Shown: positions 215 through 24,082 of the stretch, one piece after another
Layout: each line of letters begins with the position of its first letter
Position numbering within the stretch: the stretch's first letter is position 1
DNA from: a virus
Lineage: Duplodnaviria > Heunggongvirae > Uroviricota > Caudoviricetes
DNA: 28,707 nt
IMG/VR virus record: IMGVR_UViG_2778261009_000004
Strand: one strand, 5' to 3'
The notes under the pieces: generated by a model
Seen by the model: only the letters and a program-made list of their open reading frames with translations
The model's database searches: none
What the model was told of the DNA's origin: nothing
Position numbers and translations under genes: made by a program

Positions 215-3616
<3,402 letters not shown>

Positions 3617-9826: not shown

Positions 9827-10576
9827 TTAACCTGCGGCGCTGACAGCCACCGCAGCCACTGCCACAAAATCGCCGTCAGAAGTCATGCCCACAATGCTGA
9901 CACTGCCCTGCTTCACGCCTTTCACCGTGGCCACAAGCCCGTTCAGGGTCACCGTGGCAGTCTGTGGATCTGTCGAATGCACACTGATCGCTTTGTCACT
10001 GGCTCCGTCAGGTTTTACTGTAAAGGTCAGCGTGGTGGTTGCTCCCACTTTTACACTGGCAGATGCCGGTGCCACCGTCAGCCCGGTAACGCTCACTGTT
10101 TCAGTGCCTTCCTCTGCCAGATACGGACGCCCCACACCGCTGATTTTCACTGTGCGGGTCATCACGTCTTTTGAGGCAATGGTTTTACCCAGTGAGCTCA
10201 GCCAGCCACGGAAAACATCAACAGTGCCGTTGGGATATTTGATACGAAACGCGCAGACTTCACCGGAGTCGAACAACTGAACCAGTTTTTTCTGCCCGCT
10301 GTCACCCGGACGCCAGGCCAGCGTCGCCGAAGTATCACCGACGGATTTCTGCCCCTGGGTTGTCGTTTTCCAGTCTGCATCTTCATCATCGAGATAAGTG
10401 TCATCTTCTGCATCAGCGGTCATTTCGCCAGGTTGCAGATCCTTCACCATCGCAAGACGCAGCCAGTCAGTGTCCGATAAAGGGTTCGCAAACGCATCGC
10501 CCTTGCCGGTGTACATCCAGAACGTCGTTCCCGCACCTTTCGTTTTTGCCAGTGGATTTGGTGTGGTCATTGCCAC
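9827..10576 (-). CDS. V: Major tail protein V with C-terminal Ig-like (Big_2-type) domain
   Basis: 249-aa ORF in the V position (lambda V is about 246 aa); C-terminal ...VTGLTVAPASASVKVGATTTLTFTVKP... Ig-like repeat. Confidence 0.9.
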   Translation of the reverse strand: MAMTTPNPLAKTKGAGTTFWMYTGKGDAFANPLSDTDWLRLAMVKDLQPGEMTADAEDDTYLDDEDADWKTTTQGQKSVGDTSATLAWRPGDSGQKKLVQLFDSGEVCAFRIKYPNGTVDVFRGWLSSLGKTIASKDVMTRTVKISGVGRPYLAEEGTETVSVTGLTVAPASASVKVGATTTLTFTVKPDGASDKAISVHSTDPQTATVTLNGLVATVKGVKQGSVSIVGMTSDGDFVAVAAVAVSAAG

Positions 10577-10581
10577 CTCCT

Positions 10582-10995
10582 TTAATTCGTGTACGTGATC
10601 TGGTACGTGATTTCCGCCATCGCCCAGGTGGCCATCTCATTATCACGTTGATAGTTAAAACCGAGAGGGAGCAGGGTGTCGATGAGTCCGGAAAGTGCCG
10701 GTATATCATTCAGGGCCGGGAAAATGGTGCTCTCCATCCACATATCCAGCTCTGAATCCGGTGCCTGTGCCCGGATGAAGACAGCAATATGCAGAACAGC
10801 CTGCCAGTCATCTTCATCCGTCATTTTTCCGGTGTACTGAGCATCACTCAGCCACACCGCCACGGCAGGCAGTTCCTGCGCATCAATAAATGCCGGAAGC
10901 CCGTCAAAAAACGTGGCGCTGTCTCCACACTGTTCCCGAAGGCGTGCCAGTACGGCCTGGCGGATTTGTGTATGTCGGTTCATCGGGTCAGCCAT
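10582..10995 (-). CDS. U: Tail terminator protein U
   Basis: 137-aa ORF with ATFFDG...PAVAVWL...DSELDMWMES motif similar to lambda U. An alternative ATG at 10983 overlaps the Z stop in an ATGA arrangement. Confidence 0.85.
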   Translation of the reverse strand: MADPMNRHTQIRQAVLARLREQCGDSATFFDGLPAFIDAQELPAVAVWLSDAQYTGKMTDEDDWQAVLHIAVFIRAQAPDSELDMWMESTIFPALNDIPALSGLIDTLLPLGFNYQRDNEMATWAMAEITYQITYTN

Positions 10996-21011: not shown

Positions 21012-22039
<1,028 letters not shown>

Positions 22040-22350
22040 AGATATTTATGATGAGGACGCTCGTGCTTATTGGCAGGATTTTCAATCTTAAAGGAGTACT
22101 GATGCTGCAGATAAGACTCAACTTTTCTGACAATTTTTCTGCTACTTCCAGGAAGACTTGCCGGACGCTCATTCTGGCTGCTGCCTCATAAAACTCCAGC
22201 GTAGCTCCTTCAACACGGTCCATGGCGACATCCAGGCCAAAAATTTCACCGTCAAAGCGTTCTTTGTCCTGTAAGGCTACAGTTACCGTAACTTTATTCT
22301 CAAAATTACGGACTCCTTTCACAACCAGTTCATAGTCTTGAGTCATTGGA

Positions 22351-22566
22351 TTATTCTCCTCTCGCAGCCTTACGCCTGTCTTCTTTAATCTTGAAATAAA
22401 GATTTGTCAGATACGTCAGCAGGCCAAAAACCAGGCTACCCAGCACACCGATTGCAGCCCACTGTGACGGAGTTACTTTATCGAGTAACTGCAATGCCCA
22501 GAAACCAGCATTACCCGCCGATGTGCCATAGGCAACACCTGTTGTTAACTTATCCATTGATTTCAT
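22351..22566 (-). CDS. Class II holin / pinholin (S21-like) with dual-start motif
   Basis: [28 protein letters not shown]...[35 protein letters not shown]: two transmembrane segments, MKSMDK dual start (antiholin/holin), SD GGTGAGGA. The track ORF extends to 22641. Confidence 0.85.
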
Positions 22567-23845: not shown

Positions 23846-24050
23846 ATGACAGGAATTGTCAAAAACTTTGACTACAAAAGCAGCAAAGGTCTTATATTCC
23901 CATCCGATGGCGTATCGATGCCCAGCTTCACGTTTCAGCTCTCAATCTTCGAGATGCAGAAGAAATTACCACAGGATTACGCGTGGAATTTTGCCGGATA
24001 AATGGTTCGCGTGGACCTTCAACTGCCAATGTTTATCCCGGGATGAGATT
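23846..24050 (+). pseudogene. cspF: cspF/cspH-like cold-shock gene disrupted by a frameshift
   Basis: Frame 1 from ATG 23846 encodes the N-terminal cold-shock-domain motif [22 protein letters not shown] then junk until a stop at 23999. The rest of the domain ([42 protein letters not shown]) lies in another frame from about 23910. The frames switch at GATGGC|GTATCG, about 23909-23912. Confidence 0.55.
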
Positions 24051-24082
24051 CAATATCTCTATTGCCCCATTTAAAGCACAAA

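Follow-up and report, generated by a model that had tools for sequence, protein, structure and literature searches.

A one-base deletion in ydfR within the lysis cassette of a Qin-like prophage

The ydfR gene of a Qin-like prophage leaves its native reading frame at a short run of As and continues, out of frame, into the neighbouring endolysin gene. This raises the question of whether the gene is truly mutated and, if it is, whether its altered product could still have a role. We analysed the whole stretch of DNA in which the gene lies (28,707 nucleotides, IMG/VR virus record IMGVR_UViG_2778261009_000004; hereafter the window). We hold with high confidence that ydfR here carries a real, heritable one-base deletion (from A5 to A4) in a Qin-like lambdoid prophage, a minority variant found in 46 of 1798 records, and that the affected gene is most likely a dispensable one in a silent, decaying prophage.

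The ydfR reading frame and its surroundings

The prophage in the window is Qin-like and occupies the site that Qin has in K-12. It carries the Qin-type genes relBE, hokD, ydfU, ydfT, cspB, cspI and gnsB, and terminase, portal, capsid and tail genes are still in place. On its minus strand lies a phage-21-type lysis cassette with the order holin, ydfR, rrrQ, rzpQ. Directly upstream of ydfR is an essD/essQ-type holin of the phage 21 S family (71 aa, 22351..22566; Pfam Phage_holin_2_1, 116.7 bits, and RefSeq annotation). Downstream are two intact genes: the endolysin gene rrrQ (177 aa, 21506..22039; Pfam Phage_lysozyme, and 'rrrQ: lysozyme' in matching RefSeq genomes) and rzpQ (165 aa, 21012..21509; Pfam DUF2514, 131.6 bits), which encodes a spanin-type lysis protein and whose GTG start overlaps the rrrQ stop. 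Within this lambdoid lysis cassette ydfR thus has the S21-type holin on one side and the endolysin on the other, an order also found in K-12 and in phages.

As it stands, ydfR is an open reading frame (ORF) of 129 aa (22346..21957, minus strand). Its codons 1-75 (22122..22346) are in frame, end in ...AEKLSEK and encode the conserved DUF1327 N-terminal domain. At the end of this part lies a run of four As (22123..22126; T4 on the plus strand), the site of the deletion, where intact alleles have five as judged from exact-mer counts. The ORF then runs through an out-of-frame tail of 54 codons and a stop (21957..22121), a tail for which no Pfam match was found. Translation of 22122..22036 in the -1 frame relative to the start gives codons 76-103, that is, the native 28-residue tail, followed by a TGA at 22038-22036 that overlaps the endolysin ATG at 22039-22037 (ATGA). 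The initial annotation had proposed this very arrangement, with a base lost from the A run and the native tail and its ATGA overlap in the -1 frame, and on translation both its coordinates and its reading proved exact. Restoring one A gives, again as it had proposed, a protein of 103 aa, the length of K-12 YdfR, to which it is 97% identical. As for the '54-codon overlap' with the endolysin, however, the 54 codons measure the out-of-frame tail (22121..21960), and the two reading frames share only 83 nt (22039..21957, about 27 codons).

The ORF as it stands matches DUF1327 (PF07041) with 140.7 bits, against a cut-off of 25 bits, over model positions 1-80 of 93, and restoring one A raises the match to 173.8 bits over positions 1-93 of 93. 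The whole model therefore does not fit into one reading frame of the window, positions 81-93 being found in the -1 frame. A search of NCBIfam returned no match for either the 129-aa or the restored 103-aa form. The Pfam gain upon restoring the A, together with the match to K-12 YdfR, points to a frame break that is more than chance. The orthologues are one base longer in the run, and the native tail lies in the shifted frame, as in a frameshifted pseudogene. YdfR of E. coli K-12 (P76160, a DUF1327 protein of the Qin prophage) comes from the corresponding gene at the corresponding site, and in K-12, as in the restored window gene, the ydfR stop overlaps the rrrQ start as ATGA. In contrast to K-12, the window has A4 rather than A5 after codon 74, so that 54 out-of-frame residues stand where K-12 has residues 76-103, and its allele further differs at G37D, T49A and M59R.

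The loss of one A from five is of the kind that replication slippage produces in short homopolymers, and slippage is the probable cause here. Translation from the normal start would yield 75 native residues, which make up the whole conserved N-domain, then 54 unrelated ones, and would end 83 nt into the endolysin gene. The ATGA stop/start overlap would be lost, and so would the 28 native residues of the C-terminal tail, with whatever this tail does.

The domain boundary and the 129-aa product

As far as alignment can place it, the break falls where the conserved N-domain of the family gives way to its variable tail. When the window gene product, K-12 YdfR and the homologues of HannyBb, PhiR63_1 and Stx2_EH2201 are aligned, the N-domain is common to all up to about residue 74 and is followed by unrelated tails. 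By PHROGs and tblastn, residues 1 to about 77 are common to five PHROG families and to many phage proteins, which diverge thereafter. The YdfR homologues of isolated phages and of Stx phages (HannyBb, 103 aa; Stx2_EH2201, 114 aa; PhiR63_1, 183 aa) share with the window gene the N-terminal domain and the position between holin and endolysin, but their tails are genuine in-frame alternative C-termini, whereas the window tail is a by-product of the deletion. Two isolated phages, HannyBb and Tritos, carry the intact 103-aa form.

In a study from 2026, a two-hybrid screen that used RNase G as bait yielded YdfR residues 1-72, and these residues sufficed for two-hybrid interaction with Rne-NTD (the N-terminal half of RNase E) and with Rng; co-purification was also shown, and according to the study AlphaFold predicts residues 73-103 to form a helix that projects outward from the domain (PMC13232886). 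Judged from its sequence, the A4 product would retain the only part of YdfR with reported activity (residues 1-72), and the 129-aa product may retain the activity of the N-domain. It is conceivable, though we consider it rather unlikely, that the allele is not null, the 129-aa product combining a working N-domain, able to bind RNase E and RNase G, with a new tail in a tolerated or even selected exchange of tails. Such an exchange would fit a break after residue 75 in a family that is conserved only to about residue 74 and carries unrelated tails in proteins of 103, 114 and 183 aa. It would also fit the sufficiency of residues 1-72 for binding, the outward-pointing helix predicted for residues 73-103, and the persistence of the allele on several mosaic prophage backgrounds. 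The new tail, however, is out-of-frame sequence of the endolysin region for which no homologues were found (no Pfam match); ydfR reads are almost absent in K-12 under standard growth (PMC13232886); and a sub-lineage has later lost the neighbouring lysis genes, which fits neutral decay.

This loss was seen in all four inspected A4 genomes that lack a full match, where IS1 has taken the place of the whole of rrrQ and rzpQ together with the 3' end of ydfR; it is a further decay of the cassette in a sub-lineage. The four genomes are L003-L006 (strains ECONIH5, ABWA45, CX21 and C 236-04A; locus 2602-3333). The ydfR lesion is thus accompanied by signs of decay, namely the IS1 loss of rrrQ and rzpQ in these genomes and, in the window, a cspF gene that is out of frame. 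We favour dispensability of ydfR in a silent, decaying prophage as the most likely reason for the persistence of the A4 allele, which would then be close to neutral. The initial annotation had considered a real inactivating mutation; the deletion is real, but it leaves the conserved N-domain (aa 1-75) untouched and need not be inactivating. Tests of the recently proposed YdfR-RNase E interaction could make good use of the A4 allele, a natural variant in which nothing but the C-terminal tail is gone.

A more elaborate proposal would make A4 a working variant in three respects: an N-domain that still binds RNase E and RNase G and has gained a hydrophobic tail, a little wild-type YdfR regenerated by slippage at an A_AAG motif, and ribosomes that run 83 nt into rrrQ and alter endolysin output, the three jointly explaining persistence on several backgrounds. 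We regard this combination as improbable.

Recoding and the start of the endolysin

The deletion leaves behind a slippery tetramer, A_AAG, that is precisely in register (GA A_AAG UUG), such that a -1 slip of tRNA-Lys would give ...SEK-VESYLQ... (K, then GUU GAG...), which is the wild-type protein. Correction of the frameshift during translation can therefore point to a motif and a register that are both visible in the sequence, and to the fact that no tetramer shifts more readily in E. coli than A_AA.G, for which -1 frameshifting reaches 5.6% with a strong pseudoknot (PMC4066793). Tetramers without a stimulator, however, sit at background (~0.15% vs 0.11%; PMC4066793), and neither kind of stimulatory element, a downstream structure or an upstream Shine-Dalgarno (SD)-like sequence, was found here: the 83 nt downstream fold with -12.5 kcal/mol, which is no better than shuffled sequences (z = -0.86), and no SD-like element is seen just upstream of A_AAG. 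Nor is the arrangement in two frames conserved among homologues. The phage homologues are encoded in a single frame, about 95% of the 1798 records have the exact in-frame A5, and, with 97% of alleles in frame without any recoding, the site shows no conservation as a signal. The window motif thus resembles the A_AAG -1 sites of IS elements and dnaX in having the tetramer in a register that restores the native frame, but differs from them in that it is not conserved and comes without a stimulatory structure or an upstream SD-like element (PMC4066793). We therefore rejected a programmed -1 frameshift, the motif being present without stimulator and without conservation, and consider correction by slippage to be very unlikely in general; a background trickle of -1 slippage at A_AAG is possible, to go by the motif.

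The start of rrrQ has no SD sequence (scan of the window) and is preceded by a conserved A/T-rich leader, ATAAATATC(C/T)ATG. The same SD-less leader is found in front of homologous endolysins that lie 50-322 nt from the upstream ydfR-like gene, which means that coupling is not required and that a strong polar effect of the deletion cannot be claimed. A dependence of rrrQ on translational coupling, by termination and reinitiation at the ATGA, was rejected on this ground. The leader lies at 22040-22064 in the window, at 2349-2373 in L018 and at 1871-1895 in L019.

In five of the loci that we compared (L009, L012, L013, L015 and L016; locus 10425-10841), the endolysin was called with 138 aa, starting from the internal Met40. 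These calls lose the N-terminal hydrophobic segment and are found where the 129-aa ORF was called; they are an annotation artefact caused by overlap with this spurious ORF. The meaning of the present analysis is mostly one of annotation hygiene: ydfR should here be annotated as a frameshifted pseudogene and not as a gene for a 129-aa protein, and the endolysin annotation should stay at the full 177 aa, which several automatic annotations shorten to 138 aa.

Frequency and inheritance of the A4 allele

We searched 5,426 complete E. coli genomes, in which 1798 records hold this type of ydfR. An exact 62-mer with A5 (the intact, 103-aa form) was found in 1714 records (~95-97% of alleles) and an exact 61-mer with A4 in 46; an A6 version occurred in none of the 1798.

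Two SNPs travel with the deletion on the minus strand. At 22354, A replaces the G of intact alleles in a synonymous change of the last holin codon (61-mer search), and at 22202, A replaces G with the change Ala49Thr (variable-site tables). Both SNPs occur together with A4 in the window, in L001, in L003-L006 and in all of L009-L016, the eight loci that were recovered through the exact 129-aa product. Full-length exact matches to the 61-mer with 22354A were listed for 42 records, all of them A4 carriers. Over the 521 bp around the lesion the window is 100% identical to nine complete E. coli genomes.

Two other assemblies contain prophages that are near-identical to the window and have the same A4, L010 (99.93% identity over 16.6 kb) and L015 (99.97% over 10.4 kb), and a large assembly collection lists the exact 129-aa product in 971 of its blocks. 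The NCBI pipeline PGAP labels ydfR as 'frameshifted' in all nine A4 genomes that were inspected. One of these pseudogenes, C7A04_RS26305 (strain 2012EL-2448, NZ_CP027586.1), has the identical 521 bp with the same A4 and linked SNPs; the window differs from the flagged cases in that it pairs this ydfR haplotype with the other class of rrrQ 3' half and with a prophage that keeps its head and tail genes. The frameshift of A4 ydfR is therefore already known, being flagged in the inspected RefSeq records, and is ordinary. Linked SNPs, near-identical prophages in independent genomes and PGAP flags together establish that the lesion is inherited.

One-base under-calls in homopolymers are a common assembly artefact, and 97% of related alleles have A5, so one might suppose that the gene in the window really has five As and that the fourth-to-fifth difference arose in sequencing or assembly. 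This is hardly credible. The window has both of the SNPs that travel with A4 (22354A and 22202A), no A5 allele is among the listed full-length exact matches to the 22354A 61-mer, and the combination of 22202A with A5 was exact in only one listed record, on a different holin background (two records in the band of at least 99% identity). A4 is also present in the near-identical prophages of two other assemblies, and the identical 129-aa product in hundreds of assemblies. Given the common A4 haplotype and its recurrence in near-identical independent prophages, an error specific to the window is very unlikely, and of the two alternatives that the initial annotation had left side by side, a real mutation and a homopolymer error, it is the former that is favoured.

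The one listed record with a full-length exact match to the 97-mer carrying 22202A and A5 is that of strain L65. It has 22354G and a different holin allele, for which reason it was rejected as an intact ancestor of the A4 haplotype; its 22202A is probably an independent SNP.

A further suggestion of the initial annotation, that the run is a phase-variable switch turning ydfR or its coupling to the endolysin reversibly on and off, could appeal to the position of the change in a homopolymer and to the presence of A4 on more than one background, which could reflect recurrence, but it is extremely doubtful, because the tract is just 4-5 nt (known homopolymer contingency loci usually have 7 nt or more), no A6 occurs in 1798 records, a single SNP haplotype accounts for about 40-42 of the 46 A4 records, and no return to A5 is seen among the 42 listed 22354A records. 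The locus has neither the long tract nor the length variants in both directions among relatives that mark a contingency locus, and the shared haplotype without A5 reversion among the listed 22354A records speaks for inheritance and not for switching.

The A4 records do not, however, all share one haplotype. Written in the order 22354, 22202 and run length, haplotype A-A-4 accounts for about 40 records; one record with A-A-4 and a further change at 22356 was confirmed (PEC395), and QL57EC, also A4, likewise has no exact match to the 22354A 61-mer according to the search lists. Two records are A-G-4 (LCP30S3_I3, confirmed directly, and LR536431, inferred from search lists), and two are G-G-4 (Z0117EC0040, L021, and VCSW8, L022), the latter carrying a divergent holin allele like that of L002. 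In L021 and L022, ydfR (locus 1362-1579) has the same A4 on the common G-G SNP background. A strictly single origin of A4 was rejected, since four A4 records have 22202G and two of these are on an L002-like background. On the G-G background, A4 has either originated a second time or come in with a short gene-conversion tract. The allele thus arose once on a rare haplotype and was then reshuffled by recombination, with recurrence or a short conversion tract in addition, and the pattern is what one would expect where a short run prone to slippage lies in a prophage region that recombines.

Recombination can be seen next to ydfR itself. The 3' half of rrrQ (21536-21761 in the window) occurs in two allele classes that differ at 19 sites, all of them synonymous; L001 and L002 encode the identical rrrQ protein, WP_001092971. 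Most A4 genomes have the K-12 class, and the other class is found in the window, L010 and L015. The window therefore joins the A4 haplotype of ydfR to an rrrQ class that otherwise occurs with intact ydfR, which places a recombination junction between 22127 and 21761. A4 has been both inherited vertically and shuffled among prophages by recombination at this locus.

The window holds a second broken gene, cspF (23846-24074, plus strand), whose ORF leaves its frame, with a junction at 24035/24036. The C-terminal motif of CspF (18 residues) sits in another frame, and the window is also missing 258 bp that are present in strain KE58 (L007, 23332-23589).
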